This document shows positions 2,224 to 56,542 of a stretch of DNA of 64,000 bases, piece by piece; the stretch's first letter is position 1; each line of letters begins with the position of its first letter. The DNA is taken from positions 10,230,001-10,294,000 of the forward strand of contig JAGIQG010000023.1 in the NCBI GenBank assembly GCA_024679065.1, given 5' to 3'. The DNA comes from Sphyrna mokarran. Its lineage: Eukaryota. The position numbers were made by a program, and so were the translations under genes. The notes beneath the pieces were generated by a model, which did no database searches, was not told the DNA's origin, and was given only the letters and a program-made list of their open reading frames with translations.

Positions 2224-2544
2224 TTTCAGGTGCATTGTGGGCAGAAAAGAGAGTCACAGGAATTGTGGGAAGAGCGATCACAATAAATTGCAATTATACT
2301 GAACAATACAAAGAAAATGTGAAATATTGGTGTCAGGGTTGGAGTAACTTTTGCTCATATTTAGTGAGAACAAATGATTCAGATGGAAGGCAAGGGAGAA
2401 CATCGATCACAGATAACAAGGCACAAGGAATATTTGCTGTTACGATGGAGGATCTTCACTCAGGAGATGCAGGATGGTATCGCTGTGGAATTGTTACATC
2501 TGGCATCGATCCAAAGTTTACTGTGGAGCTGCAAATATCTCACG
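2224..2544 (+). CDS. Gene A exon: V-type Ig domain 1 (CD300/pIgR/MDIR-like)
   Basis: ctcttcag|TT TCA GGT GCA TTG TGG acceptor and CAC G|gtagat donor (phase 1/1). Translation ALWAEKRVTG..INCNY..KYWCQGWSNFC..DAGWYRCG has the canonical V Cys/Trp/DxGxYxC plus the extra C-C' Cys pair typical of CD300/pIgR/TREM V domains. Confidence 0.92.
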
Positions 2545-3179
2545 GTAGATTATTCTCAATGATTTTCTTTAGTACTGAAATGCCTGATCAATGTCCTTTC
2601 CATGAGGAAACATTGACAGCTCCGATATCCCGAGGCTCTGCAGCAATGCAGAGTCTGACAGCTGAGGGGCAGAGACCTGGAAATCTGACTGTTGTGACAC
2701 AAACTCAATTTGTGGCCTGTCCAACATTCTGATCAAAAACTTCAAACATTATTAGACTAATAATTCCTTTAACTATAGGATATTATGAAAGAAATTACCC
2801 ACCTGGCTTAGAATATTTTTCTGTTTCTGAAATGTATTAAATATCACACTGTCAGGTTTTTATAGTCGGCATCAATCTAATAGTCAGACATTAACAAAGT
2901 GAAGTGAGCAGCCAGTTGGTAGTTAATTGTATCTTGTTGGTTCAGCACTGAATGGTGGGGCTGTGGAGGAGCACAGAGCGATTAAATATACAGAAATTAA
3001 CAATATTGTGGGAAGCCAGTCAAATTCCCAACATCCGTATGTATCTGCAATGTGTCAGTTTGTGTTTCTTTCAAATAAACCAGTGAAAACTCAAGGTGAT
3101 GCTGACAGGTTAAAGGTTAACAAATTGGCAAATTTAACAATTAAATAATCCAATATGGAGGAAGTCCTTGAAAGAGATT

Positions 3180-3990
3180 AAAGAACAAAGAACAGGACAG
3201 CACAGGAACAGGCCCTTCGGCCCTCCAAGCCTGCACCAATCGCATTTACCGATCTAGATGAAGTGCTTATATACCTCTCTTCCCTGTTTGTTCATATGTC
3301 TGTCACGATAAGTCTGAAAGTGGCTAATGTATCTGCCTCAACCACCTCACTTGGCAGTGTGTTCCAGATCCCCACCCATCATCTGTATAAAAACATTCCT
3401 CTGCACATTTCTACCGAAACTTTCCCCCCGATCTTGAACTCTGCCCCTTTGTAATTGTCATTTCTGCCCTGGGGAAAGCTTCCAACTTATCTATAACTTC
3501 CATAATTTTATAAATTTCTATCAGGTTGTCTCTTAGCCTTCGTCTTTCTAAGGGAGAATAAACCCAAATCATTCAAATTCTCCTCATATTTAATCCCCTC
3601 CACATTAGGCAACATCCTGGTAAACATTATCTACAATATCTCCAAAGCCTCCACGTCATTCTGGTTGTGTTGTGACCTGAATTGGATATCGTATTCCAAA
3701 TGTTCCATATGATCATAAAAATCTCCATGGAAACTTTAAATACAGCTAATCTTTCTGCCTCACCCACCTCACTTGGTAGTCTGTTCCAGATCCCCACCAC
3801 GGCTGGTGTAAAAAAGTTCCCCTGAACATCTCCACTGAACCTCTCCCCACTTATCTTGAAATTGTAATTGTCATTTCTGCCCTGGGAAAACTTCCAACTG
3901 TTCACTTTATCCATAACTTTCATAATTTTGTAAACTTCTATCAGGTGGTCCTCAGCCTCCGTCTTTCCAGGGAGAATAATCCCAGTTCAA
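3180..3990 (-). mobile_element. CR1-type LINE 3' fragment, locally duplicated
   Basis: NFFTPAVVGIWNRLP motif and (aaagaac)n tail; single copy at ~44025-44550 in copy B. Confidence 0.8.
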
Positions 3991-4320
3991 AGAACAAAAA
4001 AGAACAAAGAATAAAACAGCACAGGAAACAGGCCCTTAGGCCCAACGAGCCCGCGCCGCCACCCCGATGTTCCCACCTCTACCTGTGGTCCCTGTCTATG
4101 TTTATAGATCTATGGATTAAAAACCAAATTTGAGACAATTTAGGGAGAATTTGTTTTGCCAATTAGCCTAAGAGCACACCTTTGGGATGTGGGAGGAAAC
4201 CGGAGCACCTGGAGAAAACCCACGCAAGCACGGGGAGAATGCGCAAACTCCCACAGACACAGGCCCAAATCCATGTATCTGCACAGCACAGCGATAGTCA
4301 CTGAGCTGTCGTGTTGCCCA
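3990..4320 (-). mobile_element. tRNA-derived SINE with CR1-like tail, specific to copy A
   Basis: gggaggaaaccggagcacc..gcaaactcc SINE core; absent from copy B. Confidence 0.65.
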
Positions 4321-4533
4321 TCAAATGGTCCAGGTCAAGCGTACACTAACGACGTGAAGCACTAGGATACTCTCGAAAAAAATCCAAGAGCAGCCCTTCC
4401 ACGACCCATCGCGTGTATGCCCCTTGTTAGACAACAAGGTGGACCAAAGCACCTGTAGGATAAAAACAAGTACATCAATATCATCATCTATTTACACACT
4501 TTCCAGGGACTCCCAAGGCTCATGATCCCTATT

Positions 4534-5390
4534 TTAAATCAGTTTTCTATACCCCTCCATTCCCATTCTGTTCATGTGCCCATCTAAGTATTTCTTAAAT
4601 AACTCCAGAGTGCCTGCCTCCACCACTTTACTTGGCAGTGCATTCCATACCCCCACCACCCTCTGTGTGAAAAAACTCTCTCTAGCATCCAAATTATACC
4701 TTACCCCCCTCACCCTAAGCCTGTGACCCCTCGTGCTATTTGAGTCCATCCTAGGAAAAAGCTTAACCCTGTTTACTCTATCCATACCCCTCATATCTTG
4801 TACACCTCTATTAGATCTCCTCTAAGTCTACGTCTTTCTAAGGAAAACAGTCCCAATTTGCCTAACCTCTCCTCGTAACTCAGACCTTCCATACCAGGCA
4901 GCATCCTGGTAAACCTCCTCTGCACTCTCTCCAGAGTCTCCACGTCCTTCCAGTAGTAAGGTGACCAGAACTGGATGCAGTATTGTAAATGAGGTCTAAC
5001 TGTTTTATACAACTGCAACATTAAAGGCCAGCTCTTGTAATCTATACTCCTTCTTATAAAGGCTAGCATACTATATGCTTTCTACAACCTTCTCCACCTG
5101 CTCTGCCACCTTCAGAGACTTGTGCACCTGCACCCCTAGGTCCCTCTGTGTTTCTATACTCTTAATAGGTCTACCCTTTATCATATACCTTCCTCCTACA
5201 TTCTTTCTCCTAAAATGCATCACCTCGCATTTATCAGGATTGAATTCCATCTACCATCCGCCCAAGCTATCAGCCTATCTATGACCTGCTGCATCGCCTG
5301 ACAATGCTCCTCACTATCCGCAAGTCCAGCCATCTTTGAATTGTCCGCAAACTTGCTGATCACTCCACTTACTCCCTCTTCCAAGTCATT
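4534..5390 (-). mobile_element. CR1 LINE RT 3' fragment, specific to copy A
   Basis: KFADNSK; LYKTVRPHLQYCIQFWSP..LERVQRRFTRM; FFTQRVVGVWNALP. Confidence 0.9.
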
Positions 5391-6255
5391 CTCATTCAAA
5401 TTCTCCTCATAGTTAATACCCTCCACATTCGGCAACATCTTGGTAAATCTTTTCTGCAATCTCTCCAAAGCCTCCACATCCTTCTGATTGTGTTGTGACC
5501 AGAATTAGACACCATATTCCAAATGTTCCATATGATCGTAAAAATCTCCATGGAAACTTTAAATATGTCAATCAGTGCGTGATCAAACCTTTCCCCCCAC
5601 CCCGTGATCAGTTTCAGTCTATTAATCGTTCAGTGAATTCGTGGAATCTACCTGTGGCTGAAGAAGTGACTGGGAAAGATGCCAAGAAGCATTGGAACCT
5701 TACTGTTTATTTCTAGCCGGATTGTGTGAAAGGTTTAATATCAGTATTTACAGAGTGCTAACTTTCACAACAGTGTTAGGAATGTGTATTTCTGGGTGAC
5801 ATTTTGGCGATTGTGTCTATCAGATCAGCATGAGTGGTTCTCAGGCTGTTTTATTTTGGGCTCAGATGAAGATCAATACCATCAAGAGCAGCAACTGCCT
5901 CCTCCGCATAGAGCCTGAGCTCCACAAGACAAAAGAATGAACAGAGACAAGCAGCTCGCTGACAGGCAATCTCACAACACAGGGAGTACACGTTTCCTGT
6001 TCTGCTTCTTGATGTGAAGCTCCAGTGTCTGAAGAGGCTCATTTGACAACATCCAGAACGCTTCTCCGACACAGATTGATTCCATCTGAAATGTGGTCAG
6101 CAGTTCCAAATCCCACTGGAGAGACGACCAGTTGTAGTGCTGTGTGGACCACTGCACACACACCAATCTGTCACTGCAGATATTGGCGATGAGCACTGGC
6201 CCCCTCACCATAGGACTCCCAGCTCCCCGTCACCATCCGACCACTGGCCTACCAA

Positions 6256-6409
6256 AGAGGGAGAATGTTGATCACAGATAACAAGACACAAGGAATATTT
6301 TTTGTTACTATGGAAGATCTTTGCCCAGAAGATGCAAGATGATACAGCTGTTGGATTGATAAGCCCAGTTTCCTTTCAATATTTCCTATAAAGCTACAAA
6401 TATCTGACA
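6256..6409 (+). pseudogene. Gene A pseudo-exon: 3' half of a V2-type domain
   Basis: RGRMLITDNKTQGIFFVTMEDLCPEDAR*YSCWIDKPSFLSIFPIKLQISD. TGA replaces the Trp of GWY; the 5' half and acceptor are missing. Confidence 0.88.
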
Positions 6410-7590
6410 GTATATTGTTCTCAGAGATTACTTTTATTATTCTCAACTGGAATGACTGATTGGTGCTTTATCTGGCAGGAGAAGCTCCGCAGCAGTGATG
6501 AGTCTGGTAGCTAGAGGGCAGTTAGAACAATGATTATGTTGGAGGAATTGTAATTCAGAGGCTCAGAGTATTGATCCAGAGAGATGGGAGCAGATTTATT
6601 GCACCTTGGGCCACACTCTCCTGATTAACAAATTGGCAAAAACCTCACCAATGCTCCCGATGCCTGGAGAATAGACCTTGATCACTTCCCGAATATTCAC
6701 CAGATACTCACCAACAGTTCACTTCTCCTGTAATAAATTCCTTCAGCTCATTGAACTTCCACACTTGGGTGAAGTCAGAAACAAAAACAAAAGGTCTTAA
6801 TACAAAAAGAGCAGTTCAAGCCAGTTTCCCCAATTAACTATTTCAGTTGCTGCAAGCTGATAATTTCTATCTCCCAAATCATGTCCTTTGGATGATACTT
6901 GCATCGGAATTTTACTGCCTTGTCCGGAAATGTCTGCTGCTGACCTTGGGTGGGATTTTCCAGTCTTGGTCATCTGACGCCATAAAACCCCACCCTAGAC
7001 TGGAAACAGTACTCATACCTAAATGCTAAATGGTACTGACTGTAAAATGTTAAGTATAAATGCAAACAATGGCTGGAATTCATCAAACTCGTCCGCAGCT
7101 GGAATTATCCAGTCCTGCTGCTGTGACTGGAGATTTGGCTGAGCGCCAAATTCCCTACTCTAATTAGTAGCTGGGGAGGATCGCTCAATATCAGTGAATT
7201 CAGGTCAAAATTAGATTTTTAGAAGCGTATTTAAGTCTTTGTTATCTCAGCAAAGATCCACAGTTTATCTCAGTTCACACTGCAATGCTTGTTACTAACT
7301 AATTTGTTATCATGTATATATGCTGTTCATGACAGCATTAAATAGATACGACCGCATTTGGCCAAGCTCCCACTGCCATCTCTCTCTCTCTTTCTATCAT
7401 TTTCCGTTCCTCTTGATACACTGGATGAGGTATAGAAATATTGGGAATATGAAGCTATTTAGTCATTTTCAAATTCAAACTTTTAAAGTTTAAGCTCAAA
7501 CATTTTTTTTAGTTTGTATCACAAATAGATTTACATTAACACTGTAACGAAGTTGGTGTGAAAATCTGATAATGATTTTTATTTTCACAG

Positions 7591-7905
7591 AATCTGTATC
7601 TGTTCCTGTGCTTAGATTTCTATCACCACCAAATGCCTGGGGCTCAGTGTCTATCTCCTGTGAGTCTGTCCAGGGATCACTTCCCATTCAGTACACATGG
7701 TATGAAAAGACTCCATCTGAAGATTCAAAGATCTCTGACACCAATAAACTGGATCTACATTGTCAATCCTTCACACAGCGACATCATCAATATTACTGCA
7801 CAGCCTCAAATAACCAGGGAGACAAATCCAGTGAAATGGTTATTGTGTTAGTGATGAACATTTCAGAGAATGATTGCAGTTATGTGACACAATTCAGCAA
7901 CAGTG
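7591..7905 (+). CDS. Gene A exon: C2/I-type Ig domain a
   Basis: ttttcacag|AA TCT GTA ... AGT G|gtaaat (phase 1/1); VSISCES..YTWY..QYYCTASN motif. Confidence 0.9.
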
Positions 7906-8572
7906 GTAAATCTCTCTTTCAACTTCAGAAATCCAATTAAATTTTAAATTAATGTCTGTCAGAATTGCTCACGGGTTTAGTTCTATTGATCATTCAAAGC
8001 AATTTTTGTAAAAACAGAATTACATTTATTTTTCACTTTTCATAACTTCAGGACAGTTTTAATGTCAGTTCTGGTCAAAGCTGGAACTGATTCAGGGCCA
8101 TTGTTGTGATGTCGGAAGCTCAGCGCCAATTTATAAGCAATGAGCTCCCTCAAATAGCAACGTGATCATGAACAGACAATCTGCTGTCTGACAATTATTG
8201 TTTAAGAATGCAATGACTCCTGGAGGCGGATGTGAAGAAATCTTGCTTGCATTGTACAAATGATAATAAACAATAATACACACCTGTGGTGAACACAAAA
8301 AGCCCGAACCAGGACTCAAATATTCTTAAAGTTTCTCAAGGTCTTGCTTTATAAAGGGCTCAGTATATAATCTCAATACGGTTGTTTAATTATCAATCTG
8401 TGGGGAGCACACATTCAATGAGCCCAATGATCTCAAACAAGAAAGTTTTCAATGGCATTATATGATGTGTTTCAGAGATTTCTCTGAACACAGTGGTGTA
8501 TCCTAGTGAAAATACATCTGTTTCTATTAAACAATTATTTTCAGTTCAATTTTTGACCTGTTGCCTTTTCAG

Positions 8573-8905
8573 CTCCGAGTGCATTGTGGGCAAAAAATAA
8601 TATAACAGGAGTTTTGGGAAGAGCGATCGCTATTGATTGTCACTATGACAAATTGTCCCAGTCACATGTGAAATATTGGAGTCACCAGTGCTCTGTGTCA
8701 AAACAGAGTCAGTGCTCTGTTTTGGTAAAATCAGATGATCCAGATGGACGGCGAGGGAGAATGTCAATCACAGATAAGAAGACACAAGGATTATTTGTTG
8801 TTACTATGGAGGATCTTCGCCCAGGAGATGCAGGATGGTACACCTGTGGTATTTCTAAGTCCGGCCTCCTTTCACTATTTCCTGTAAATCTACAAATATC
8901 TGATG
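8573..8905 (+). CDS. Gene A exon: V-type Ig domain 2
   Basis: ccttttcag|CT CCG AGT GCA TTG TGG ... GAT G|gtaaat; IDCHY..KYW..DAGWYTCG. Confidence 0.9.
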
Positions 8906-9958
8906 GTAAATTGTTCTCAGTGATTATCTTTATTACTCTTGACTGAAATGTCTGATTGGTGCTTTATCTGGGAGGAGACATTGACAGCTCCGACGGCTGG
9001 AGGCTCCGCAGCAGTGCAGAGTCTGGCAGCTAGAGAGCAGTTAGAACAATGATTATGTCGGAGGAATTGTAATTCAGAGGCTCAGAGTAATGATTCAGAG
9101 AGATGAGGTTAGATTTATTGCACCTTGGACCATGCTGTCCTGGATAACAAGTTGGCAAGGACCCCCATCCATGCTCCCAATACCTGGACATTAGGCCTTC
9201 ACCACTTCCCGAATACTCACCAGATACTCACTAACAGCTCATTTCCTCTCCTGTAATAAATTCTTTCAGCTCATTAATCCTCCACACTCTGGTGAAGTCA
9301 GTGTCCAGTGTTGGTTGCAGTGAGAATGTCCAATTTTACATGTTTAAAAACAAAAGGACTCAGCTCAAAGAGAGCAGTTCAAGCCAATTTCCTCAATTAA
9401 CTGTTTCAGTTGCTGCCAGCTGATAGCTTCTATCTCCCAGCTCATGTTCTTTGGATGATACTTTGAAAATTTACTGCCTTGCCCGCTATGGTATTGGAGT
9501 GGGTGTGGGGCCGACAACAGAAATGTCTGTTGACTCTGGGTGGGATTTTCCAGTCTCGCTCATTCGAGGTCATAAAACCTCAGCCTAGAATTGAAACAGT
9601 ATTCACACCTTAATGTTAATGCTACTTATTGTTGAATGTTGGATACAAATACAAACAATGGCTGGAGTTCAGCAACATTATCCGCAGCTGGAATCCTCCA
9701 GTCCTGCTGCTGTGAATGAAGATTTGGCTGAGCGCCAAATTCCCTACTCTAACTGGCAATGGAGGCACCTCGTTTGATATCAGAGAATTCAGGTCAAGAC
9801 TAGATTTTATAAAAGATATTTATGTCTGTGTTATCTCAGCAAACATCTCACATCACACTCCAATTCTTGTCACTAATTAATCTACTATTATGAATACCTG
9901 CTGTCCATGAGAGCAATCAATAGATACTATCTGCATTCAGCCACGCTTCCACTGCCAT

Positions 9959-9986
9959 TTCTCTCTCTCTCTCTCTCTCTCTCTCT
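9959..9986. repeat. (CT)n microsatellite
   Basis: Direct reading; a shorter version sits at the paralogous position ~7379-7392. Confidence 0.9.
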
Positions 9987-10191
9987 AACACTTTCCTTTC
10001 CTCCTCACATCCTGAATGTGATGTTGAAATATTGGTAATCTGAAACAATTTAACTTTTTGGTCATTCTAAAGTTTAAACATTTAAAGTTTGAAGTTAGAG
10101 GTTTTTTTTACTTAGTATCACAAGTGGGCTTACATTAACACTGCAATGAAGCTACTGTGAAAATCCTTTCATGATTGTCTTTTGCCCACAG

Positions 10192-10515
10192 AACCCGTAT
10201 CTGTTCCTGTGCTTAGATTTTTATCACCACCAAATGCCTCATGTTCTGGGGGTTCAGTGTCTATCTCCTGTGACTCTGTCCAGGGATCACTTCCCATTCA
10301 GTACACATGGTATGAAAAGACCCCGTCTCAAGATTCAAAGATCTCTGACACCAATAAACTGGATCTACATTGTCAATCCTTCACACAGCAACATCATCAA
10401 TATTACTGCACAGCCTCAAATAACCAGGGAAACAAATCCAGTGAAATGGTTAATGTGTCAGTGATCAACAGATCAGGGGAGAATTGCAGTTATATGATGC
10501 AGATCAACAGCGTTG
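10192..10515 (+). CDS. Gene A exon: C2/I-type Ig domain b
   Basis: cccacag|AA CCC GTA ... GTT G|gtaagt; EPVSVPVL..ISCDS..YTWY..YYCTASN..ENCSY. Confidence 0.92.
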
Positions 10516-11194
10516 GTAAGTGATGGTGTAAATGTACAATGTGGTCACTAAAATATTTTGTTGTCATTTGCCTATTCTGATTGTTGGTTAACTTCCTAAT
10601 GTCTCTCTGAATGATTTGCAACTGACAAAATTCGCTCGTCTTTGTCCATCAACAATTCAGAGCAAAATACTGATAAAAATATTGATTGAAAATATCAGGA
10701 TCATAAGATATTCCCTAAACATGCGTAAATGTTGTGGTAATCCCATTAAAATTAAAGCAAACTTGACTGATAATATCTCCATTAACCATTCCTGTTCCCA
10801 TTTCTTGGAGATCAAATTGTGAAAAACAATCTTTACTTGATGTTTCTTGCTTTCGGATGAATGGTAAGGATAGAGAGCTGAAGAGTTGATGTAAAATGAC
10901 AACATCTTGAAAGATCTCACTTACGAAACGGAAGAATGTTTCCCATTTATTTTCACTGTCACCTGACTTCTCAAAGCTCTTTACAACCAATGAAATGCTT
11001 TCTGAAGCATTGTCGCTCTTGTGAGGCAGGGAACACAGCAGCCAATTTGCATACAGCAACTCAAAAGAATAAACTGAGAACCTGTTTTTGATTGAGGGAT
11101 AAATATTGCCGGGTGATTTGGGATAACGCTTCTGCATTTCTTCAGGAAATCGAGTGCCACAGATCTTATACATCCATAGTTTCATAGAATCCAT

Positions 11195-11510
11195 AGAATT
11201 CTACAGTGCAGAAGGTGACCATTTGGTGCATTGAGTCTCCGCCAACGATGATTCCATCCAGACCTTATCCCCATAACCCCATGCATTTACCCTAGCTGGT
11301 TTCCCCTGACACTAAAGGGCAATTTAGCTTGGCCAATCCATCTAACCCGCATGTCTTTGGAATATGGGCGGTAACTGGAGCTTCTGGAGGAAACCCACGC
11401 AGACACGGGGAGAATGTGCAAACTCCACACAGTCACCCGACATCAGATTTGAACCCGGGTCGCTGGCGCTGTGAGGCAGCAGTGCTGACCACTGTGCCAC
11501 CATGCTGCCC
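11195..11510 (-). mobile_element. HE1-like tRNA SINE nested in an older SINE
   Basis: MVAQWSALLPHSA-type head on the minus strand; catagaat tail. Confidence 0.8.
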
Positions 11511-12859
11511 ATAGAGCAAGCAGACTGGGGACTCAGTTCAACATCCCATCCAAAAGGCAGCATCTCCAACAGTGCAGCACTTCCTCAGTACTGCACAGGA
11601 GTGTCAGCTTTGATTTTTGAGTCCTAGAGTAGAGTTTGAGTATAGAATGTCTGATGCAGACACAAGAATGCTACCAACAGCTGACACCAGATAGCAGGCT
11701 GATTAGAACAGAAGGAAATGATCTGCTAGATATATTCAAAATTATTGGAAGCTTTGATTAGTTAATTGAGACTAATCATTTCCACTAGTAACTGAGTGAA
11801 TATTTGAGAGAATACATTAAGATCATTACAACAAGGAGAGCGGGAGAAGTTTGGAGATGCAAATGATTATTAAGATATGGATTACATTAGAACCAGGATC
11901 AATAATAGTTTTTATAAGGGAAAGCAAAAAAGGAGCAGACATTTCAGAGAATTTGGGGAAAAGACATGACAATGGGAGTGTCGCTGTCGACTCGATGGGC
12001 TAAATGGCCTCCTTGTGCATTGCATGGATTCTATGATTCTGAATGGCAAATTCTTTCATAGCGATGGAGGGCAACGGACCAAATTTCTTTCTTTGCCATA
12101 AAATTCTATCATCACAAAATGCTGCTTAAACTCTTAGAATTCCATGTTCTAAACATTAAATTACTCAGTGTTAACATAAACACTAACTATAGTTCGGAAT
12201 TAATGAGGACTTTAACCTGTTTGAATGTTTAATATGTGTCAGTGTCAGAAGGGGCTCAGTTGGTAGCAGCCTGATTTCTGAAACCAATGGGTTGTGAGTT
12301 CAAATTCTCCTTCCGAGAAAGGTGTTGATATCCCTGTACAGCACGGAGATTGTGCTCTGCTGTTGACAGTGCTATTGTCTGGTTGAACTGCTGACCTACA
12401 CGTCCTTTGAGCTAAATGTAAATGATTGTACGGCCCTCTTCTAGGAGGAATAGGCAAATTTTCCTGGTGCCTTACAGACCCTCATAACATTTAAGAATTA
12501 TTTAGATGTGCATTCGTGATGCCAATGCACACAAAGTTATGGATCATGTGTTGGAAAATGGGATTAGAATAGTCAGGTGGTTTGGCTTTGATGTGATGGG
12601 TGCTCCCTCCCTCACAGCACTGTGGATGTACCTACACCACAAGGACTGCAGTGGTTTAAGAGGCATCTCATGACCATCGCCTCAAGGGAAATTAGGGATG
12701 GGCAATAATTGCTGGGCTTAGCACTGACACTCACATCCCACGATGAGGTGCTCCCTCAACGAGGTTCTCCCTTAGGTCAAGGTGCCACTTGACAATGTGA
12801 CTCCCTTGGTTAACGACAATGAAAATGAGGCTGATCTGAATGTTGTTTTCTTGTTTCAG

Positions 12860-12938
12860 TTGGATCTGAAAATTCCTGTGAAGCTTTAACAGTATCGCCA
12901 ACACATTCCTCAACTCCAAACTCCAAACTTGCTGAAAG
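12860..12938 (+). CDS. Gene A exon: Ser/Thr/Pro-rich stalk (79 nt)
   Basis: ttgtttcag|..GAA AG|gtatgt; VGSENSCEALTVSPTHSSTPNSKLAES. Enters in phase 1 and exits in phase 2, exactly bridging the Ig exon and the TM exon; conserved in gene B. Confidence 0.85.
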
Positions 12939-13849
12939 GTATGTTGCTTTTATGTAAGTGTTTAAATGGCATGGCTTCTGTGTGGGTGATTAAATCCTCT
13001 TGAACAACTTCTGTGTCTACTCAGAAATAAAACTTGATTCTTTCAGTCTAGTATTTCCTGGGTAATTATCCAGGTAAGCCCCAATGAATTGTTTGAATCT
13101 CTTACCCAGAGCTGAAGATTTTCACAGAGGGACCCAGGCAGAATTGTCCATTGAAAGTTCCAATATCCCAGGCAATTCCCATGGAATTGGGTCATCTGCA
13201 GAGTTCTGACACACATCTTGGGTCGTATGTCCAGTCTCTGACAATTCGGGAGACTGGGCATCATTTTTCAATAGTTCTCATATCAGGAACCTTGGCGACA
13301 TGCTGTTGTGTTCGCTTCGTAATGAAGGTGCGAGCATTAAAAAGGGTTGATTTGATGTGAAGTCATTAGGATGCATGTTCAGGCTGCTGTGTTACTGACA
13401 GTTTTATACTTCATGCAGTGCAGAGAGCAGCTCTTTATTAAAACATGTTTTGCGTTTGCTTGAATCTATGTGTGCAAACCAAGTCTTTTCATTTTCTGTT
13501 AAAACCCACAACACCTAACATAGTTGGGACATAGAGAAAGAGCAGAAATTGTTACAATGATGATGAGGAGAAAATACCAACTAAACATCAACATGATGAA
13601 AAATCTGCTAGAAATACACAGCGGGTCACTTCTTATCTACAGAGAAAGCAGACAAAGAGAATCCTGAAGAAATGGCCAATATTGATCTGGTCAAAGGTCA
13701 CTGCTATTTGAGATTTTGCTGTGTGCAAATTGGTTGCCAATCTCCCATATAACAACAGTGACGGTTATTTAAAAGTACTTCCTAGATTGTAAAGCTCTTT
13801 AGGACATTCTAAGGGTATGAAGAGCGCTATATAATTTCAAAATCCACTT

Positions 13850-14850: not shown

Positions 14851-14894
14851 TTGTAAAGTCCAACACTGCTCATTTCCTATTCTCTGTGTCACAG

Positions 14895-14983
14895 TCTGGT
14901 TTACATTGTGCTTGGGATGCTGGGGGCCATTCTTGTGGTGTTTGCTGTTTCTCCACTTTTGTACCAGAGGCAAATCAACAAGG
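14895..14983 (+). CDS. Gene A exon: transmembrane
   Basis: gtcacag|T CTG GTT TAC..AAG G|gtgaac; LVYIVLGMLGAILVVFAVSPLLYQRQINK, with no charged TM residue. Confidence 0.88.
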
Positions 14984-16506: not shown

Positions 16507-16559
16507 ATACAAATGACATTGGTCATGGAAGAGACAAAGATAATCTTTTTGACAATCAG
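16507..16559 (+). CDS. Gene A exon: cytoplasmic 1
   Basis: tttttcag|AT ACA..AAT CAG|gtgagg (phase 1/0); DTNDIGHGRDKDNLFDNQ; paralogous exon in gene B. Confidence 0.82.
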
Positions 16560-18779: not shown

Positions 18780-18893
18780 CAATTGGAAGTTGTAGAAGAG
18801 AACATTGTGTACATCAGTATAAAGCGAAATCGAGGAAGCTTTGCAAAAACATACAGAAAGCAAACTGTCCGCTTCACTAACAATGAGGATTGA
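18780..18893 (+). CDS. Gene A last coding exon: ITIM IVYISI, premature TGA (ancestral frame ran to 19055)
   Basis: ttacag|CAA TTG..; QLEVVEENIVYISIKRNRGSFAKTYRKQTVRFTNNED*VTYAAL..C*..AIYTNITH*; colinear with the last exon of gene B. Confidence 0.85.
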   Translation, partial: QLEVVEENIVYISIKRNRGSFAKTYRKQTVRFTNNED

Positions 18894-19321
18894 GTCACAT
18901 ATGCAGCACTACAGATTCAAAAGTCTGAAGAGTTAAGATGTTGATACACTCGGTTAACAATGAAGATGTGTCAATGTTCAATGATAGCTCTCAAAGAACA
19001 ACGTACAAACTTTAATGAATCTGAAATGGCAATATATACTAACATAACTCATTAGGAAAAGTATTCATGAAGAGCATGTGATGAATATTATTCCTTCTTA
19101 CTTTGCAATTAAATTTCATCTGCAATGAACTGTCTACAGACTTTGTCAATTTGTCTGTACTCTCTGAGTCATTCCCTCCAGTTTAAGTGCCACTTCCTAT
19201 TTGGTATCATTGTCATTTTTAATCAGGAAACAATGACCATCTGGTTATTGATATAAATGAGAAATAGCAAATTAAAATAAATTACCAATGAAGCTTTATA
19301 TTTAAGTTATTTTCATAAAAC

Positions 19322-20194: not shown

Positions 20195-20231
20195 ATGTGG
20201 ATTTTGATTCTCTTCATTTGCTCTCTGCCTG
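20195..20231 (+). other. Orphan signal-peptide (leader) exon of the same receptor family
   Basis: ATG TGG ATT TTG ATT CTC TTC ATT TGC TCT CTG CCT G|gtgagt = MWILILFICSLP; paralogous to 39050-39086, including the start of the intron. Confidence 0.8.
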
Positions 20232-31645: not shown

Positions 31646-31651
31646 CATCAT

Positions 31652-36029: not shown

Positions 36030-36199
36030 TTGTTATGGGCAAACAACATGGGGGTTGCTACATTTCTTGAACATCAGATGATTAGGCTGAAGAAGTAATG
36101 ATCAGGGCTCATATCAGCTACACCATGGTGTGAACAAGTTATCCCAGAGAGAGGTATCAGGGAGTGAGTATCAGAAATCAATGGGGCAATTCTCCTAGA

Positions 36200-39049: not shown

Positions 39050-39086
39050 ATGTGGATTTTAATTCTTTTCATCTCTTCTCTGCCTG
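39050..39086 (+). CDS. Gene B exon 1: signal peptide
   Basis: ATG..CCT G|gtgagt, MWILILFISSLP; phase 1 joins 43078 to give MWILILFISSLPVSGALW. Confidence 0.88.
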
Positions 39087-40308
39087 GTGAGTAAGGGACA
39101 GAACTAGATATCAAGATGATGAATATTAGATTAATTTTAGTGCATGGTTTATCCCGCAGCAATATTTAAACACTTGGAGACATGTAAAGCTATGAAAACT
39201 CAGCAAAAATAAATTAATGACATTTTTGTGATATTTGTCGCTATTTTGTTGATACTATTATGCCACAGAAATATTTACCCAGCAAATAGTAAATGGCATT
39301 ATTGATTATGAATATAAACTAACCTATTGATTTTTGTTAAAAAGCTATGTGACTGAAATAATTAAAATGCAGAAGCAACACATTTTAGTCCAGTAAAAGT
39401 TAACGTGTTAATGTAGTTTCATGCTCAATATATCCTGGAGACTGGAGGGTTTGATTCACTCAGTTAGTTGGAGCGTAATGCAGAATGGTTCCATTGGCAA
39501 GGGTTCAATCCTCAGGCTGGCTGTGGTAGTTTATGGAAATCTGCCTCCTCACCTTTCCTCATTCCTGTGGATTGAGTGAGTGGGTGAAATGACCACTACG
39601 CACCCAGGGTGTAGTTCAATAGCAGTATAGCTTTATTTTCTTTTACGTCGATGGAGGTGCAAGCAGGGCATACAGTCGAACTGTCCCAAAAGCACACTAA
39701 AGACCTGCCAAAACGGGCTATAATTATACCCAAACTTCGGTGTAGTGTGCAATTCAAATTTTAATGTTTTGTTTACAGTGTTTGATCTTAGTCATCCTGT
39801 CTCAATGTTTTCAAGTGTTTGGATGATTGTTTTAAATATGTGTTAATCGTTTTTGCCTGATTGGTCATCAATGGTCTGGAATCTCTGAGGTTTGAATAGG
39901 TGTACAATTATTCTCAGGAAGTTTGAGAGGCCAGGGGTGCACTCTGAGCTATGCTAATCTTAAGGTGTCTCTGTAGGTTGTCTGACTGGTTTAGAAGTGC
40001 TGATTTGGTGGGGTATGGAGGTGTGTACTTTTTAATTTAGCTCCTAGAGGTGCCTTCCTGACCAGCTTCTCCTGTGTGCTAGCCCTCATTTGCATTCTAA
40101 AAGCATGCTCCTGCCTGCGTCTGCGATTTTTAGTGGAGGGGCTCTGAGTGTGGTTTTAGTCTGCTTCTATATTGTGTGCCCAATTTCATTAAATTTGTTG
40201 TCCGATAACAGGGTCCCTCACACTCGATGTAACCAATTGTCTCTCCCTCATGTTGAGAGATGCCTGTGATCCATTGCAGATTATTGACTCTGAAGATTGC
40301 TGAGTTAA

Positions 40309-40968
40309 AGTTGGCAATCAAGTCGATAACGTTGTTAAGAAGGCATATGGAGTCTTAGCTTTTGTTGGTAGGGGGATTGAATTTCAGAGCCGCAACGTCA
40401 TGTTGCAACTGTACAAAACTCTAGTGCGGCCGCACTTGGAGTATTGTGTGCAGTTCTGGTCCCCGCATTATAAGAAAGATGTGGAGGCATTGGAGAGGGT
40501 ACAGAGGAGGTTTACCAGGATGTTGCCTGGTATGGAGGGCAGGTCTTATGAGGAGAGGCTGAGGGATTTGAGGTTGTTTTCGTTAGAAAGGAGGCGGCTA
40601 AGAGGAGACCTTATTGAAACATATAAGATGATTAGAGGTTTAGATAGGGTGGACAGTGATAGCCTTTTTCCTAGGATGGAGAAAGCTAGCACGAGGGGAC
40701 ATAGCTTTAAATTAAGGGGTGGTAGTTATAGGACGGATGTCAGAGGTAGGTTCTTTACCCAGAGGGTGGTAAGGGTATGGAATGCCCTGCCTGCGGCAGT
40801 TGTAGATGCGCCAAGTTTGGTGGCGTTTAAGAGGTTAGTAGATAAGTTTATGGACGAAAAGGGAATGGTTTAGTTTGGAGGGTCATTGCTTTTTCCTAAT
40901 TGGTCGGCGCAACATCGAAGGCCGAAGGGCCTGTTCTGCGCTATAATGTTCTATGTTCTATGTTCTAT
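40309..40968 (+). mobile_element. Young 5'-truncated CR1 LINE, specific to copy B
   Basis: Uninterrupted RT C-terminal ORF (LYKTLVRPHLEYCVQFWSP); (TGTTCTA)3 tail; GTTAA on both flanks; empty site at 55-60 in copy A. Confidence 0.93.
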
Positions 40969-43077: not shown

Positions 43078-43398
43078 TTTCAGGTGCATTGTGGGCAGAA
43101 AAGAGAGTCACAGGAATTGTGGGAAGAGCGATCACAATAAATTGCAATTATACTGAACAATACAAAGAAAATGTGAAATATTGGTGTCAGGGTTGGACTA
43201 GCAGGTGCTCATATTTAGTGAGAACGGATGATCCAGATGGACGGCGAGGGAGAATGTCGATCACAGATAACAAGGCACAAGGAATATTTTTTGTTACAAT
43301 GGAGGATCTTCACTTAGGAGATGCAGGATGGTACAGCTGTGGAATTGTTACATCTGGCATCGATCCAAAGTTTACTGTGGAGCTGCAAGTATTTCATG
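43078..43398 (+). CDS. Gene B exon: V-type Ig domain 1
   Basis: Paralogue of 2224-2544 with the same splice sites; YWCQGWTSRC, DAGWYSCG. Confidence 0.92.
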
Positions 43399-46300: not shown

Positions 46301-46544
46301 TTCACCAATTAATTTAAATCTTTGTCTCCTGGTTCATGGTCTGATCTGGAGAGCTGCTATATTCTGAAATAATAATAGAGAATGTAGATCAGACTGTTTG
46401 GAGGATGGAGAAATATAGAGAGCTAGATGTATTGGTGAGATTACAACATGACTGACCCTGAATGAAAAGTTGATGAGCTGAAATTTACAGTGTTTGATTT
46501 TTAGATATTCACTCATTTTCTGAATATTTGTTTCTTTCCCACAG

Positions 46545-46868
46545 AACCCGTGTCCGTTCCTCAACTGAGATTTCTATCACCACCAAATGCCTCATGTTCT
46601 GGGGGCTCAGTGTCTATCTCCTGTGACTCTGTCCAGGGATCACTTCCCATTCAGTACACATGGTATGAAAAGACCCCATCTGAAGATTCAAAGATCTCTG
46701 ACACCAATAAACTGGATCTACGTTGTCAATCCTTCACACAGCAACATCATCAATATTACTGCACAGCCTCAAATAACCAGGGAAACAAATCCAGTGAAAT
46801 GGCTAATGTGTCAGTGATCCACATTTCAGAGAATAATTGCAGTTATTTAACACAAATCGACAGTATTG
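46545..46868 (+). CDS. Gene B exon: C2/I-type Ig domain
   Basis: cccacag|AA CCC GTG..ATT G|gtaaac; ISCDS..YTWY..YYCTASN. Confidence 0.92.
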
Positions 46869-47888
46869 GTAAACATCACTTTAAGCATCAACAATTACAA
46901 CAAATTTTTAAGTTAATATTTGTCTGAATTGCTCACTGGTGAAAATCCATCATTGGTCTAAGCAATTGGAATAAAAATAGAATTGAGTTTATTTTGCACT
47001 TTTCACAACTTGGGTACATGTTAAAGTCCGTTCTTGTCAATGCTGGAACTGATTCAGAGCCATTGTTGTGATGTAGGGAGCTCAGCACCTATTTATGAGC
47101 AATAAGCCCCCTCAAAGAGCAATGTGATCAGACAATCTGATGTCTGACAGTTGCTGTTTGAGAGAAAAACTTTCCCTAGAATGGGGGAGAATTCCTCAGG
47201 CATTCTTTGGGCTTTTATTCCTCTTGTAGACTGGGGGGTGCTGATGTTTGTGGGCAATGGGGGAGGAGGAGGTTATATATGCATTGGGGTGGATTCTGTG
47301 AATTGGTGGGGGGGGGGGGTGCTGGGATTCGTTGCTGAGAGGGTGAGAGTGGGAATGCCACAATGCTGGCAGAGATAGGCTGGTGTAGGGTCACCCTAAT
47401 GATTGCATGGTGTTGGAGAAGAACGTTGATCTTTGAATGGTGGGACATTGAGGGGAGACTGATCTTCTACCTGAGGAATGTTCTCCTTGTCCACTGAGGT
47501 TCCTGATGTCTGTGAGCAGTGGGGGTGGGGGAGAGGGTTCTTCAACTGAATGTTGAGACCAACTTTAAAAATGATGCCCAATCTCTATGGAGACAACCCA
47601 GCACAAACCAAGCCACCTGTTTTTTTTGACAAAGTCAGAAAGTTTTGTGGGCAAAGCTTTCTGGAGAGAAACTCATCAGATTTCAGATCAAACCTGACAA
47701 TTTACCCCCTTCTAGAAAATTCCAGCCATCATATTAATGTTTTAACATCTCAGACAAGGATGTATTCAATTGCATTAGAAAATGTATTGGAGAGATTTCT
47801 CTGAACACAGTGGTAAATTCTATTGAAACATATCTGTTTGTATTAAACAATTATTTTTGGATCTGTTTTTGACCTGTTGTCTTTTCAG

Positions 47889-48197
47889 TTCCAAGTGCAT
47901 TGCGGGCAAAAAATAATGTAACAGGAGTTTTGGGAAGAGCGATCACTATCGAATGTCACTATGACAAATTGTCCCAGTCACATGTGAAATATTGGAGTCG
48001 TCAGTGCTCTGTTTTAGTAAAATCAGACGATCCAGATGGACGGCGAGGGAGAATGTCGATCACAGATAACAAGACACAAGGATTATTTGTTGTTACGATG
48101 GAGGATCTTCGCCCAGGAGATGCAGGATGGTACAGCTGTGGTATTGATAAACCCGGCCTACTTTCAATATTTCCTGTAAAGCTACAAATATCTGATG
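47889..48197 (+). CDS. Gene B exon: V-type Ig domain 2
   Basis: cttttcag|TT CCA AGT..GAT G|gtaaat; IECHY..YWSRQC..DAGWYSCG. Confidence 0.9.
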
Positions 48198-49448
48198 GTA
48201 AATTGTTCTCAGTGATTATCTTTGTTACTCTCGACTGAAATGTCTGATCGGTGCATTATCTGGGAGGAGACATTGACAGTTCCGATGTCTGGAGGCTCTG
48301 CAGCAGTGCAGAGTCTGGCAGCTAGAGGGCAGTTAGAACAATGATTATGTTGGAGGAATTGGAATTCAGAGGCTCAGAGTAATGATCCAGAGAGATGGAG
48401 GCAGATTTATTGCACCTTAGACCACACTTTCCTGGTTAGCAAGTTGGCAAAAACCCATGCTCCTGATGCCTGGACAATAGACCTTGATCACTTCCCGAAT
48501 ACTCACCAGATACTCACCAACAGCTCACTTCTTCTCCTGTAGTAAATTCCTTCAGCTCATTAAACCTCCACATTCAGTTGAAGTCAGAGTCCAGTGCTGA
48601 GTTCAAAAACAAAGGATCTCAGTACAAAAAGACCAACTAAAGCCAGTTTCCCCAATTAACTATTTCAGTTTTAGCTTCTATCTCCCAAAACATGAACGTG
48701 CAAACTCCATAGTCACCCAAGGCCAGAATTGAATCTAGGTTTTTGGTGCTGTGAGGCAGCAGGGGTGCCATTATTGTGCCACCATGCTGCCCGTAGAGCA
48801 GGCAGAATAGGGACTCAGTTCAACATCCCACCCAAAAGGTAGCACCTGCAACAGTGCAGCACTTTCTCAGTACTGGACAGGAGTGTCAGCTCTGATTTCT
48901 GAGTCCTAGAACAGGGTTTAAACACAGAACCTTGTGGATGCTACCAATAGCTGGCACTGGCTGAGAATCATTAGATCTCTTCAAAATTACTTGAGCCTTT
49001 GATTAGATAAATTGGGATGAATTATTTCCAGTAATAAGTGAGTAAATACTGGAGAAAATACATTAAGATAATCACAACAAGGACAGCAGGAGAAGTTTGG
49101 AGAATTTTATTGATGCAAATGATTATTAAGATATGGATTGCATTAGAACGAGGACCAACAATAGCTTTTATAATGGAAGCAAAAAGGAGCAGACATTCAA
49201 GAGGATATGGCAAAAAGATACAATAATGAGAATGTCGCTGCAGCGGTTCAAGGCATTTCATGACTATTGTCTCGAGGGCAATTGGGATGGATAATAATTG
49301 CTGGCATAAACTGTGATACCCACATCTCAAGATGAGGTGTCCCCTCAATGAGGTTCTCCCTCAGGTTGGGATGCCACTTGACAATGTGATTCTCTCGTTT
49401 CACGACAATGAAAATGAGGCTGATCTGAATGTTGTTTCTTTGTTTCAG

Positions 49449-49527
49449 ACGGATCTGAAAATCCTCGTGAAGTTTTAACAGTATCACCAACACATTCCTC
49501 CATTCCAAACTCTAAACATACTGAAAG
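49449..49527 (+). CDS. Gene B exon: stalk
   Basis: tgtttcag|..GAA AG|gtacgc; DGSENPREVLTVSPTHSSIPNSKHTES (phase 1/2). Confidence 0.85.
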
Positions 49528-52193: not shown

Positions 52194-52282
52194 TCTGGTT
52201 TACATTGTGCTGGGGGTGCTGGGGGCCATTCTTGTGGTATTCGTTGTTTCTCTACTTTTGCACCGGCGGCGAATTGACAAGG
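52194..52282 (+). CDS. Gene B exon: transmembrane
   Basis: LVYIVLGVLGAILVVFVVSLLLHRRRIDK; donor G|gtgagt; uncharged TM followed by a basic stop-transfer stretch. Confidence 0.9.
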
Positions 52283-53774
52283 GTGAGTTTCTGTTTCTCC
52301 TGACTCATTTTGTTATATTTCAATAATTTTCTGAAGAATATAAAGAGAACCTAATTTGCTGCAATCAACAAACATCTCTGATTCTGGTATTCTACACATT
52401 CTAATATAGATGTGTTAAACATGGAAGAATATTGAAGTTGTTACTGTTATTCAGAAACAACAGCTAACCCTGTGAACTCTGGAGGAAGTGAAACTCAACA
52501 TGGGTTTACAATGATAGAGACCATAAGACCATCAGAAATAAGAACAGGAGTAGGCCATTCGGCCCATCTGCTCCGTCATTCAATAGGATCATGTAGATTT
52601 GTTTGTGACCCACAATGGAATTATTTTGGCCATGTATGCCCCAAAATTAGAAGTTCCCATCCCAGTTCAACAGACCTTTCAAATGGTCCACCAAATTCTC
52701 TGTCCCACCTGCTACAATTCACAATGTGGATAGGACGGGAAAATCTTGCCCCAAGTCATTTCTTTGCTTAGCTATGTGAGGGAAATCTTGCAATGATCTT
52801 TCAGTATCTATTGATGCCTGGCTTGAATGCACTCAGTGGTGGAGCATTCACAGCTCTCTGCAACAGAGAATTCCAAAGATACAGAACCTTCTGTAACCTC
52901 ATCTCAATAAATGGGCCCACACTGTGCTCTGGGACTGTGACAGATTTAAGGCAGAGATAGATAGATTCATGATTGGTGAAGGGATCATAGATTTTTGGGG
53001 AAAAGGTGGGAGAATTGGATTGAGAAACTAATCAGCTATGATTGAATGGTGGAGCAGACTGGATGGGCTAAATGGGCTAATTCTGCTCCTATATCATATG
53101 CTCTTATGATCTTATGTACTCCAGTCAGAGGAAATATTTTCTCATATCTGCCCTATGAAGCAATTAAGATTTTTAAAAAATTTTCAATAAGATCATCTCA
53201 CATCCTGCTGAACAGCAAAGAATATTGTCTTGGTGTGATCCTATTGCTCCTTTATTGCACAATCCTTCAGGGCCATGTGACTGGACCACAATCAAGTGCA
53301 CAAGCCTATCGGGAATCTATTGGGAGGGAGGGCATGCAGCCCTGGGGGACGGAGGCTATTGTTGAAGCCTGGGCATTCTTAGGAGTAGATCTGTATCATT
53401 GTGATGTTAAACCCTTTGTTGTGTAGAGCTCATCCGAATCAATAAATCCTTTAGTTTGTAACTTCACCACATCATCTCGGGTTATTACACCTGGACCACT
53501 CAGTCTCTTCTCAGAACACAATTTCCTTCTTGGGAATCAGCACAGTGAACTGAAGATGGGAATGTCCGACCTGCAGCCAAAAACTACAAACAGTACTCCA
53601 GGTGTGGCCTCACCAATTCCCCATTTGTAACCCATCTGGAACAAAAGATAAGAACTCATTTGTCTTTCTTTAAATGCAAAACAATGCCCTGCAGCACATA
53701 TTCAGTTGAGACATTCTAAGTATAACTACCATTCTGATTAAAGCCTTTTCAATGTTAACATTTTCATTTTTCAG

Positions 53775-53827
53775 ATGCAAATGTCATAAGCCAAGGAAGA
53801 GGCAATGATAATGCTTATAATGATCAG
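53775..53827 (+). CDS. Gene B exon: cytoplasmic 1
   Basis: tttttcag|AT GCA..GAT CAG|gtgagg; DANVISQGRGNDNAYNDQ. Confidence 0.82.
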
Positions 53828-56266
53828 GTGAGGAGATCAAGTGTGAATTCTCTGACCAATGTCTGGAAATTTTCAAACCTGGATGATATAGAATTTACAG
53901 CACTGAAACAGCCCATGCTGGATTTGATGCTCAACACAAGCCTTCGTCCATCCCTCTTTATCCAACCTGAACAATATAAGCTTCTGTTCCTTTCACTCAC
54001 ATTTGCTTTTGTGGATTTGCCTTAAATGTATTGATGCTATTTGACTAAACTACACCTTGGACTGGCTCCAATCTTTAATCTCATTGAATGGGCACAAAGG
54101 GAGACAGACCTTGGCTTTACTTTCAGAAATGAGACCTCGTTAATTATTTCATCCCAACTTTGGATTTGATGACATTTGTCAGTTCACGCTCTCGTCTATT
54201 CCTGTAAAATCTCAAGTATTACTGCCAAAACAGAACAAAAATTGAGAATAAGAAAATGCTATCAAAAACCGATGAGTCCACCAATGAGAGATTGGCCTTG
54301 CTGTAACTTCACCATCTAGTCACTAAGCTTTGGCATCCTCTCTATCTAATTCATCACTTCATTATACCTTAAAATGTCTTTGCCTTAAAACTTTGAAAGA
54401 TTGTGGTCACCTTCACTAATATCTCCTTCCTTGGTTTAGTTTCTGTTTGTACCTGATGATGCTGCCATGGGTCTCGAGGCATATTACTATGTTGAAGCCT
54501 CCAAATAAATGTACTTTCTTGTGTTAAATATGGTCATAGTTAATTCTAATTTAGGATCGCTGCTGGTTCTACTGTGAGATAGTACTATGAAAGATGCTGT
54601 CATTCCAAAGGAGTTTGCATCATTGAACGCAGTCCCTGTTCCCCTGTGAATTAATTACAGCACAGTTCACTGGGAAGCTGCTGTGAAGATGTTTCAGTGC
54701 GGTTCCCACAATTACAGATGGGCAACACACACAAGCTGACCAAATGACAGAAAAAAGAACTCTGATAATCACAAGCCATAACAGAAAGTGTGGATATTTA
54801 GATAGTGCAATCATGTGAACAAACCTCATTCATAACGAATCATTATAATTAGGCAAGCATATATGGGGTGCCACATTAGCACAATGGTTACACTGCTTCT
54901 TTGCAGCACCAGGGACCTGGTTCAAGTCCGGCTTGGGTCACTGCCTGTATGGAGTTTGCACATTCTCCCCGTATCTGTGTGTGGGTTTCCACTGGGTGGT
55001 CCAATTTCCTCTCACATTCTGAAAGACATGCTGGTCATGTGCATTGACCCGAACAGGCACTGGACTGTGGTGACTCAGGAAATTTTACAGTAACTTACTC
55101 GTGATTAACAAATAAATAAACTTAAAACTTTAAGTACAGAGGATATACCTGGTTAACTACATTCATCTGACATAAATGAAATAGAACTATTCGCTCAATG
55201 AGTTCTGAACAAATGTATACTTGTGATTGGTGTATGAGAATTATCTGTAAAATATGCAAAGTTATAATGGTGCATGCCCTGTACCAGTGCGCCACCTTGT
55301 GGGAGGCAGACCTCCTCACTAAAGTGTAAATAAAGGCTAATTTAAAATCCTGAAAGCTTCATCTCGTCTGCCAAGGATGCGAGATACAATTTCACTGAAT
55401 GGCGGCAAAATTCCTTTTCACATTCTGCCTTAGAAAATTTAAAACATTAAGGCTAGATTCAGCAAGCTGGGCCTCTCTTCTCTGATTAATGATCTAGCTG
55501 AGATCTTAAGATTCAGGTAGAGATAACAAAGATGTTTCCACTTGCAGGCAAGACCAAAAACAGTGACTATAAATAGTGGATAGTCATTAATAACAGGTAC
55601 TGATGAATTAGTATTGGACTAGTAATCTAGAGATGCAGGATCAACATCTGGGGATGTTCAAATTCCACCAAGACAGAACTCAATAAAAGTCTGGAATTAA
55701 GTGTCTAATGATGTTCGTAAAACTACTGCTGATTGCAGTAAAAACCCCATTTCGTTCACTAATGTCATTTAGGGATATTTCCCTGCGGAAATCTGCTGCC
55801 TATGCCTGGTCTGGCCTACACATGACTCATAAATGCCCCCTGAAATAGCCGAACAAGCCATTCAGTTCAATGATGGATGGGTAAAAATGTTGGCCCAGCC
55901 AGCAACGACCACATTCCTTGTGTGAATAAAAAAGGTTCATCCAACAGCGAATTCAAGAAAAGCATCTTTACCCAGAGTGTTCAGAATTGAAATTTTCCAC
56001 CATAGGGAACAGTTGAGGCCAATAGCGCAAAATACATTCAAAGAGGAGCTGGATAAGCACATGGAAAGGGAATGTTATTTTGATGAGATTAACTGGACAG
56101 GTTTATGTGAAGTTGGGACAAATGATATGTTTCACCGTTGGAAATAGATTATCGAATGTTGCGATGACATGTAAACTGATTTGCAACAATCTAAAAATCG
56201 ATTTCTCCATTAATCTCCATTCAAGTTAAGTGGAAATAAATTGGATCTTTATTTTCTATTTTGCAG

Positions 56267-56542
56267 CAATTGGCAGTTGTAGAAGAGAACTTTGAGTATG
56301 CCAATGTAAAGTGCCATCGAGGGAACTCAGCAGAAACACGCAGCAAGCAAACTGTCCGCTTCACTAACAATGAGGATAGAGTCACAAATGCAGCTCTGCA
56401 GATTCAAAAGCCTGAAGAGTTAAGAGATCGAGGCACTCAGTTAACAATGAGGATGTGTCAAGGTTCAATGACAGCTCCCAAAGAACAACACACAAACTTT
56501 GATGAATATGTAATAGCAATATATGCTAACAAAACTCATTAG
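56267..56542 (+). CDS. Gene B last coding exon: cytoplasmic tail with degenerate tyrosine motifs
   Basis: tttgcag|CAA TTG; open to TAG; FEYANV, VTNAAL, AIYANK. Confidence 0.87.
   Translation, partial: QLAVVEENFEYANVKCHRGNSAETRSKQTVRFTNNEDRVTNAALQIQKPEELRDRGTQLTMRMCQGSMTAPKEQHTNFDEYVIAIYANKTH

Follow-up and report, generated by a model that had tools for sequence, protein, structure and literature searches.

MDIR-family receptor genes of a shark with a CD300-type head domain and a variable series of internal V-C2 units

How do neighbouring immune receptor genes come to differ in the number of their extracellular domains, and what would such receptors do? The question is raised by a stretch of 64,000 nt from Sphyrna mokarran (G000:C805:10230001-10294000; hereafter the window, with positions counted from its first base), which holds two genes, A and B, with alternating variable-type (V) and C2-type immunoglobulin (Ig) domains. 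Genes A and B are probably shark paired receptors of the MDIR family that deletions have cut down from longer tandem arrays. Their CD300-type first V domain (the head) is predicted to bind ligand, and the internal V-C2 units, which vary in number, would serve as a spacer rod. MDIRs, a family of cartilaginous fish with kinship to CD300 and pIgR, have received very little study. Cannon et al. reportedly described them in 2006 as having one to six domains. A passage on the family characterizes them as multigenic activating and inhibitory receptors resembling CD300, TREM and pIgR (PMC3031540).

Exons were located by a six-frame scan, self-comparison and exon mapping, followed by in-silico splicing. 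Self-comparison revealed that the + strand carries one gene in two copies, which are 79-87% alike across several kb. Gene A is spliced from nine exons into V-C2-V-C2-stalk-transmembrane (TM)-tail, 554 residues, and has the B-like leader that the initial annotation had assumed. Gene B is spliced from eight exons into V-C2-V-stalk-TM-tail, 495 residues, ending at 56542. All acceptor and donor sites are canonical AG/GT, and both layouts agree with those first proposed. The seven Ig exons are 309-333 nt long and, again as proposed, all of phase 1/1. As phase 1/1 is the normal state for Ig-domain exons, it is not special here, and the accompanying claim of free shuffling was overstated: head and internal V domains fall into distinct clades, each of which stays in its place. 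Pfam assigned the four V exons to V-set and the three others to Ig_2, Ig_3 or Ig_C17orf99. In both genes the second V differs in subtype from the first.

No run is recorded as RNA for this stretch. Contigs from four probable RNA runs of relatives (of 13 listed) were aligned to positions 46400-48500 only, which hold the C2 and internal V exons of gene B. Runs X5 and X7 cover chiefly the exons. In X7, 46868 is joined to 47890, in agreement with the predicted C2-V splice to within one paralogue base; joints from the end of a V to the start of a C2 are present in X2, X5 and X7. Runs X1 and X2 cover introns too and may hold DNA. The contigs support the splice pattern for the family, not for genes A and B themselves.

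Of 142 candidates in a protein search with the internal V of gene B, 92 were relatives, almost all of them belonging to sharks, rays, skates and chimaera; the closest were Mustelus models (90-95%). The relatives are named only pIgR-like, CMRF35-like, FcRL5-like, titin-like or uncharacterized, so automated labels hide the family, as had been anticipated. A second protein search (108 from 6,085 candidates) recovered skate MDIR2, MDIR3 and MDIR5 (ABC86796.1, ABC86797.1 and ABC86800.1). All seven Ig exons of the window match these at 44-70% identity (E 1e-30 to 1e-48), and the leader is near-identical between the window genes and the skate MDIRs, which also share the V and C2 types, the C2 cysteine pattern and the tail and TM types. 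The marks of an MDIR are present in the window genes: V and C2 homology, a modular V/C2 ectodomain of variable domain number, and membership of a multigene cluster with ITIM (immunoreceptor tyrosine-based inhibitory motif) and charged-TM members.

The deposited layouts are V-C2-TM-ITIM for MDIR2, V-V-C2-V-C2-TM-ITIM for MDIR3 and V-C2-V-C2-TM for MDIR5. The alternating (V-C2)n arrangement had been taken to go beyond MDIR layouts; since MDIR5 already has the ectodomain of gene A and MDIR2 is V-C2, the same architecture exists in MDIRs and that claim falls. The family, in other words, is known. Among 148 homologues the layouts include V-C2 (46), V-C2-V-C2 (30), (V-C2)3 (13) and V-C2-V (5); the alternating layout is the norm of the family. 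Of 122 further relatives from a 50%-identity library, 120 are V-only and two have this C2 type, so V-C2 pairing seems restricted to close relatives. The shark cluster differs from MDIR2, MDIR3 and MDIR5, which have 2-5 Ig domains and a TM, in reaching 28 domains and including TM-less forms; MDIR5 further has an arginine in its TM, whereas A and B are of the uncharged TM type.

The head is of the CD300 type. Against single-domain solved structures it scores 82 bits with mouse CD300f and at most about 39 with any mammalian pIgR domain. CD300f (CLM-1; PDB 6C74) is described in the relevant passage of its structural report as having a lipid pocket between the CDR3 (third complementarity-determining region) and C-C' loops, with a Cys36-Cys44 floor and a metal held by Asp98 (PMC6166816). 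From the aligned ranges, Tyr34, Cys36, Cys43 and Asp95 of the head fall on Tyr34, Cys36, Cys44 and Asp98 of CD300f; the range that places Asp95 on position 98 is ungapped. The C-C' cysteines, the tyrosine and the aspartate are kept in all seven heads of the subfamily, and the aspartate in none of 26 internal V domains, in which the C-C' loop is four residues shorter and its first cysteine absent. Across homologues the aspartate is found in 120 of 141 first V domains and in 2 of the 34 internal V domains with fewer than two loop cysteines. CD300f shares with the shark genes the existence of paired ITIM and activating forms; it differs in being a single V rather than 3-4 Ig domains including C2, at its Trp89 and Met100 positions, and in its chromosomal neighbours.

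The internal (spacer) V subtype forms one clade (Shimodaira-Hasegawa-like approximate likelihood ratio test, SH-aLRT, 98) in a quick version of the V-domain protein tree, which comprised 19 chosen homologues of the 92 together with the domains of the cluster. It was seen in the mackerel, carpet and houndshark models sampled, and was not found among the sampled skate, ray, sevengill, sawshark, horn shark, catshark and chimaera models. MDIR2, MDIR3 and MDIR5 are without it, because all their V domains keep both C-C' cysteines. The nonsynonymous to synonymous rate ratio (dN/dS), from pairwise comparisons that are mutually non-independent, is 0.32 (0.22-0.48) for the 26 internal V domains, 0.94 (0.58-1.69) for the seven heads, and 0.40 and 0.52 for the C2 domains of two very long neighbouring genes, the 20-Ig and 28-Ig giants. 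The internal repeats are thus under purifying selection. Amino-acid change in the heads is concentrated in the FG loop (proportion of nonsynonymous differences 0.254, of synonymous differences 0.038). Under purifying selection and without the pocket, the internal V domain is likely a spacer.

The best match of the C2 domain is FCRL5, to domains 3-8 (top 35 bits). The similarity is distant and is not evidence of orthology; FCRL5 lacks V domains, whereas the shark C2 has extra cysteines, a predicted extra C-terminal strand, and alternates with V. Two extra cysteines co-occur in 282 of 294 C2 domains. A third, in counts that are not phylogenetically independent, is present ahead of a cysteine-bearing stalk in 112 of 122 cases, ahead of a one-cysteine V in 25 of 29 and ahead of a two-cysteine V in 38 of 104; the rule does not hold for the penultimate C2 of gene A or for that of either giant. 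Because the third cysteine tracks the cysteine-bearing stalk or one-cysteine V, the pattern suggests an inter-domain disulfide that would stiffen the rod; within the array, the predicted bond links the A' cysteine of the C2 with the lone cysteine of the internal V. A multi-domain structure prediction for a basking-shark homologue (predicted local distance difference test 81, predicted template-modelling score 0.46) confirms four Ig folds; its domain arrangement is unreliable and disulfides are not readable from it, and a fold search with it gave generic multi-Ig matches only, with template-modelling scores near 0.2.

In 1.06 Mb of the contig surrounding the window, 14 V-C2 loci lie between 9.93 and 10.42 Mb, and more distant V exons continue to 10.67 Mb. 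In order along the contig the loci have 2, 2, 6, 20, 2, 2 (a pseudogene), 2, 28, 4 (gene A), 3 (gene B), 6, 2, 2 and 2 Ig domains. Seven are of the uncharged or ITIM-tailed TM type; the arginine type comprises three intact loci, one pseudogene and one Arg-to-Cys variant, and two loci have no usable TM. With a range of 2-28 domains, deletions and gene-specific expansions, the cluster remodels as fast as the initial annotation had supposed. Gene B lost its last C2 by deletion: at about position 48694 the V-intron is joined to the post-C2 intron. For gene A, positions 6257-13010 are colinear with the last 1.5 units of the 28-Ig gene at 88%, against about 80% for the other units. As this colinear stretch starts within a V exon and the two genes have a 9-nt C2 deletion in common, gene A is a longer array minus its middle.

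Growth was gene-specific. In the 20-Ig gene the C2 domains C3-C8, from the middle units, group as a separate clade (ultrafast bootstrap 100), and the middle units of the 28-Ig gene form separate small clades; the DNA tree of internal V plus intron resolves poorly, insertions distorting its branching. Introns between repeats differ by 0.21-0.24 and in each 1.1 kb carry about 12 indels that would break a frame; the majority of the repeats therefore do not stem from recent duplication. Unequal crossing-over is the probable mechanism of these changes and would alter the reach of the head.

Both giants have lost their membrane anchor. In the 20-Ig gene the TM exon has lost 5 nt as well as its donor and its acceptor is dead, the first tail exon is absent and the last exon is frameshifted; in the 28-Ig gene there is a stop in the stalk, the TM exon is deleted and the tail decayed. 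All 48 Ig exons of the giants are open with canonical sites, one of them (the 28-Ig head) by an AG 6 nt downstream. They contain no frameshift or stop in 6,333 nt (20-Ig) and 8,865 nt (28-Ig), where roughly 14 and 20 frameshifts, respectively, would be expected, at the intron rate measured between gene A and the 28-Ig gene, had the genes been dead since the split of those two. Splicing of the stalk to the last exon gives 2,155 and 2,987 residues without a hydrophobic segment, with 38 and 45 predicted N-glycan sites; an ATTAAA is conserved. The stops lie in the last exon or 11 nt before it, and by the 50-nt rule the transcripts are predicted to escape nonsense-mediated decay. Because every Ig exon is open while TM and tail exons are destroyed, the two proteins are likely secreted. 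The 20-Ig head is 92% identical to the head of an activating gene of the cluster, Gd.

Long models also occur elsewhere, with 12 Ig domains in Mustelus (XP_078098058.1, XP_078098060.1) and 18-19 in Amblyraja (LOC116987004, LOC116986997). Three of these four have a TM; XP_078098060.1 is without one but runs past its last C2. A search of proteins of 1,837-5,000 residues found only the two skate models among 1,428 candidates. The skate arrays are built from ordinary two-cysteine V domains, and hence are likely independent expansions.

Few tyrosine motifs are left in the tails of genes A and B: A has one ITIM-like motif and B no canonical ITIM, and the neighbours G3 and Gc have two ITIMs each. As most tail tyrosine motifs are gone, A and B are likely weak inhibitory receptors or membrane decoys. 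By the proposed mechanism, the head would use a CD300-like metal site to bind the head groups of lipids or ligands on microbial surfaces, A and B would signal weakly or serve as membrane decoys, and the giants would act as secreted decoys or opsonins. More tentative, and given here somewhat less than even weight, is the full extension of this reading: an inert V-C2 spacer accordion would set the reach of a lipid-sensing head, its longest versions would twice have become secreted proteins, and the 20-Ig form, which shares its head with the activating receptor, could be the soluble decoy or opsonin of that receptor and, in plasma or mucus, a giant innate analogue of antibodies.

Several observations weigh against these interpretations. 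The heads preserve the CD300f pocket only in part, with Ser/Arg at the position of Trp89 and Lys/Ala at that of Met100, and head dN/dS is not significantly above 1. Terminal exon pairs are weakly constrained (last C2 of gene A against that of the 28-Ig gene, dN 0.076, dS 0.105). Selection on the giants may predate their TM loss, tails of the subfamily decay even where the TM is kept, and the 28-Ig head, with dN about equal to or above dS and a rescue acceptor, also fits early decay. No transcript of the exact genes was seen; the joints come from contigs of relatives whose RNA status is a guess and which are not tied to one paralogue. A, B and the giants might accordingly be read as decaying copies in a birth-and-death cluster, their Ig exons open through recent duplication or past selection. 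The premature stop and TM proline of gene A, the loss of an ITIM tyrosine and a C2 exon in gene B, and the broken V exon, orphan leaders, orphan tail and one clear pseudogene close by would suit such a history. It is nevertheless rather unlikely: the A and B splice sites are all canonical and their stops lie in the last exon, three lesions in the 89-nt TM exon of the 20-Ig gene stand against none in its Ig exons, and the intron divergence makes most repeats too old for recent duplication. Far less credible is that the long arrays were produced by assembly errors or by read-through that fused adjacent genes. Mustelus models P0002-P0004 repeat the head V or hold an internal leader and are probably gene joins, P0002 ending in an intronic repeat, and a 100-N gap separates the 28-Ig gene from gene A; yet each array has one leader and one head, a regular spacing of about 2.5 kb and no gap inside, its units are diverged (closest intron pair d 0.023), and an independent 12-Ig Mustelus model, P0148, has one head and a TM.

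The genes could also be polymeric-Ig or Fc receptors, with a V that binds shark IgM or IgW in the manner of pIgR domain 1, and with TM-less giants that act like secretory component. pIgR chains do come first by whole-sequence score and by fold, pIgR is multi-domain with a related V bearing the C-C' disulfide, and the best C2 match is to FCRL5. Mammalian PIGR lies near IL10, and the contig of the cluster also carries an IL-10 gene, at 16.27 Mb, about 5.6 Mb off; mammalian CD300 is flanked by a Tweety gene (TTYH2), and the three shark Tweety loci, the sole CD300-neighbour marker examined, are on other contigs (C749, C783 and C1104, not C805). Domain by domain, however, CD300f is well ahead of mammalian pIgR, the head CDR1 is two residues shorter than that of pIgR domain 1 and lacks the Ig-binding VNRH motif, and pIgR is V-only, without C2 domains. 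The soluble form of pIgR arises by cleavage, not by TM-exon loss. The immediate left neighbour of the cluster is EFCC1/CCDC48 and no IL10-cluster gene (the right-hand flanking open reading frame matched no Pfam family), and paired ITIM and arginine-TM forms fit signalling, not transcytosis. This alternative is improbable, slightly more so than decay.

On the preferred reading, that of MDIR paired receptors with a CD300-type head and spacer units, the nearest secreted precedent is carp SITR, presented in a passage of PMC3031540 as a secreted CD300/MDIR-related Ig protein without TM; it is a teleost protein whose two Ig domains stand in the opposite order. Neither the head-plus-spacer accordion nor the 20- and 28-Ig forms, which are probably secreted, appear to have been described before, though the original MDIR paper may already cover longer or soluble members. 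In the open literature, subscription journals and the original MDIR paper being outside the scope, no account of MDIR clusters in sharks, of V domains as spacers or of secreted giants was found. A 2014 survey states in the relevant passage that no PIGR or FcRL homologues occurred in the shark genomes then available (PMC4016189). As they combine a CD300-type V with an FCRL-type C2 and lie on the IL-10 contig, the window genes bear on the origins of Ig receptors and of lipid-sensing paired receptors. If the giants are secreted, sharks own very large soluble innate receptors that are masked by names such as 'titin-like'. The natural 2-to-28-domain series offers a direct test of whether ectodomain length tunes signalling. 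The features of the window and the two giants are listed in Table 1.

Table 1. Positions of the exons and related features of genes A and B (window positions unless a contig is given) and of the two giants
Feature	Position	Strand	Remarks
Gene A leader exon	G000:C805:10229446-10229482		519-555 bases upstream of window; B-like
Gene A head V exon	2224..2544	+	CD300-type; C-C' cysteines and FG-loop Asp kept
Broken 3' half of internal V exon	6257..6409	+	stop inside, no acceptor; marks deletion that shortened gene A
Gene A C2 exon 1	7591..7905	+	9-nt deletion common to penultimate C2 of 28-Ig neighbour
Gene A internal V exon	8573..8905	+	spacer subtype; 24-nt duplication, in frame
Gene A terminal C2 exon	10192..10515	+	FCRL5-like
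Gene A stalk exon	12860..12938	+	one Cys; phase 1/2
Gene A transmembrane exon	14895..14983	+	core uncharged, one Pro
Gene A first cytoplasmic exon	16507..16559	+	
Gene A last exon, coding part	18780..18893	+	one ITIM-like IVYISI; TGA 18891-18893 directly ahead of VTYAAL
Orphan leader exon	20195..20231	+	ATG and donor intact
Gene B leader exon	39050..39086	+	
Gene B head V exon	43078..43398	+	top single-domain match among solved structures: mouse CD300f, E 4e-22
Gene B C2 exon	46545..46868	+	
Gene B internal V exon	47889..48197	+	spacer subtype; no first C-C' Cys, no FG-loop Asp
Gene B deletion junction	48670..48720, near 48694		terminal C2 exon removed
Gene B stalk exon	49449..49527	+	no stalk Cys
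Gene B transmembrane exon	52194..52282	+	core uncharged
Gene B first cytoplasmic exon	53775..53827	+	
Gene B last exon	56267..56542	+	ITIM tyrosine replaced by Asn (VTNAAL); no canonical ITIM
20-Ig gene	G000:C805:10084647-10044932 (loci L042-L046)	minus	outside window
28-Ig gene	G000:C805:10203758-10151387 (loci L053-L058)	minus	outside window; 14 units

The orphan leader sits 1.1 kb past gene A, and a like arrangement follows the 20-Ig gene and the orphan tail at 10214563 of the contig. It could be left over from the next gene in a duplicated block, or gene B could use it as an alternative first exon. In the last exon of gene B and its paralogues the middle part is, by eye, in another frame than in the older cluster tails; with this change one ITIM-like motif is gone and the final tyrosine motif is kept. 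The first intron of gene B contains, at 40304-40968, the 3' end of a young CR1-type long interspersed nuclear element (LINE) with an ATGTTCT tail, copies of which, 94-96% identical, lie inside both giants. A LINE ORF1 (open frame of 323 residues) and the start of an ORF2 occupy 62468-63999 of the window.

Elsewhere in the cluster, gene Gc (G000:C805:10106630-10106718) combines an arginine within an otherwise inhibitory-type TM with two ITIMs and is a possible dual-function receptor. The distant V exons at G000:C805:10454075-10669466 (L077-L098), about 28-48% identical to the queries, represent a V-only subfamily; this region holds several arginine-type TM exons and a 30-kb tandem duplication whose copies are nearly identical. 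On another contig, at G000:C446:28048214-28159567, three weak matches to the V domain (33-34%, E about 5e-5) possibly mark a second CD300/TREM-like cluster. In Rhinoraja, model P0087 fuses a TRIM69-like protein to C2-V-C2-TM, which is probably an annotation join and hints at a TRIM neighbour in skates.

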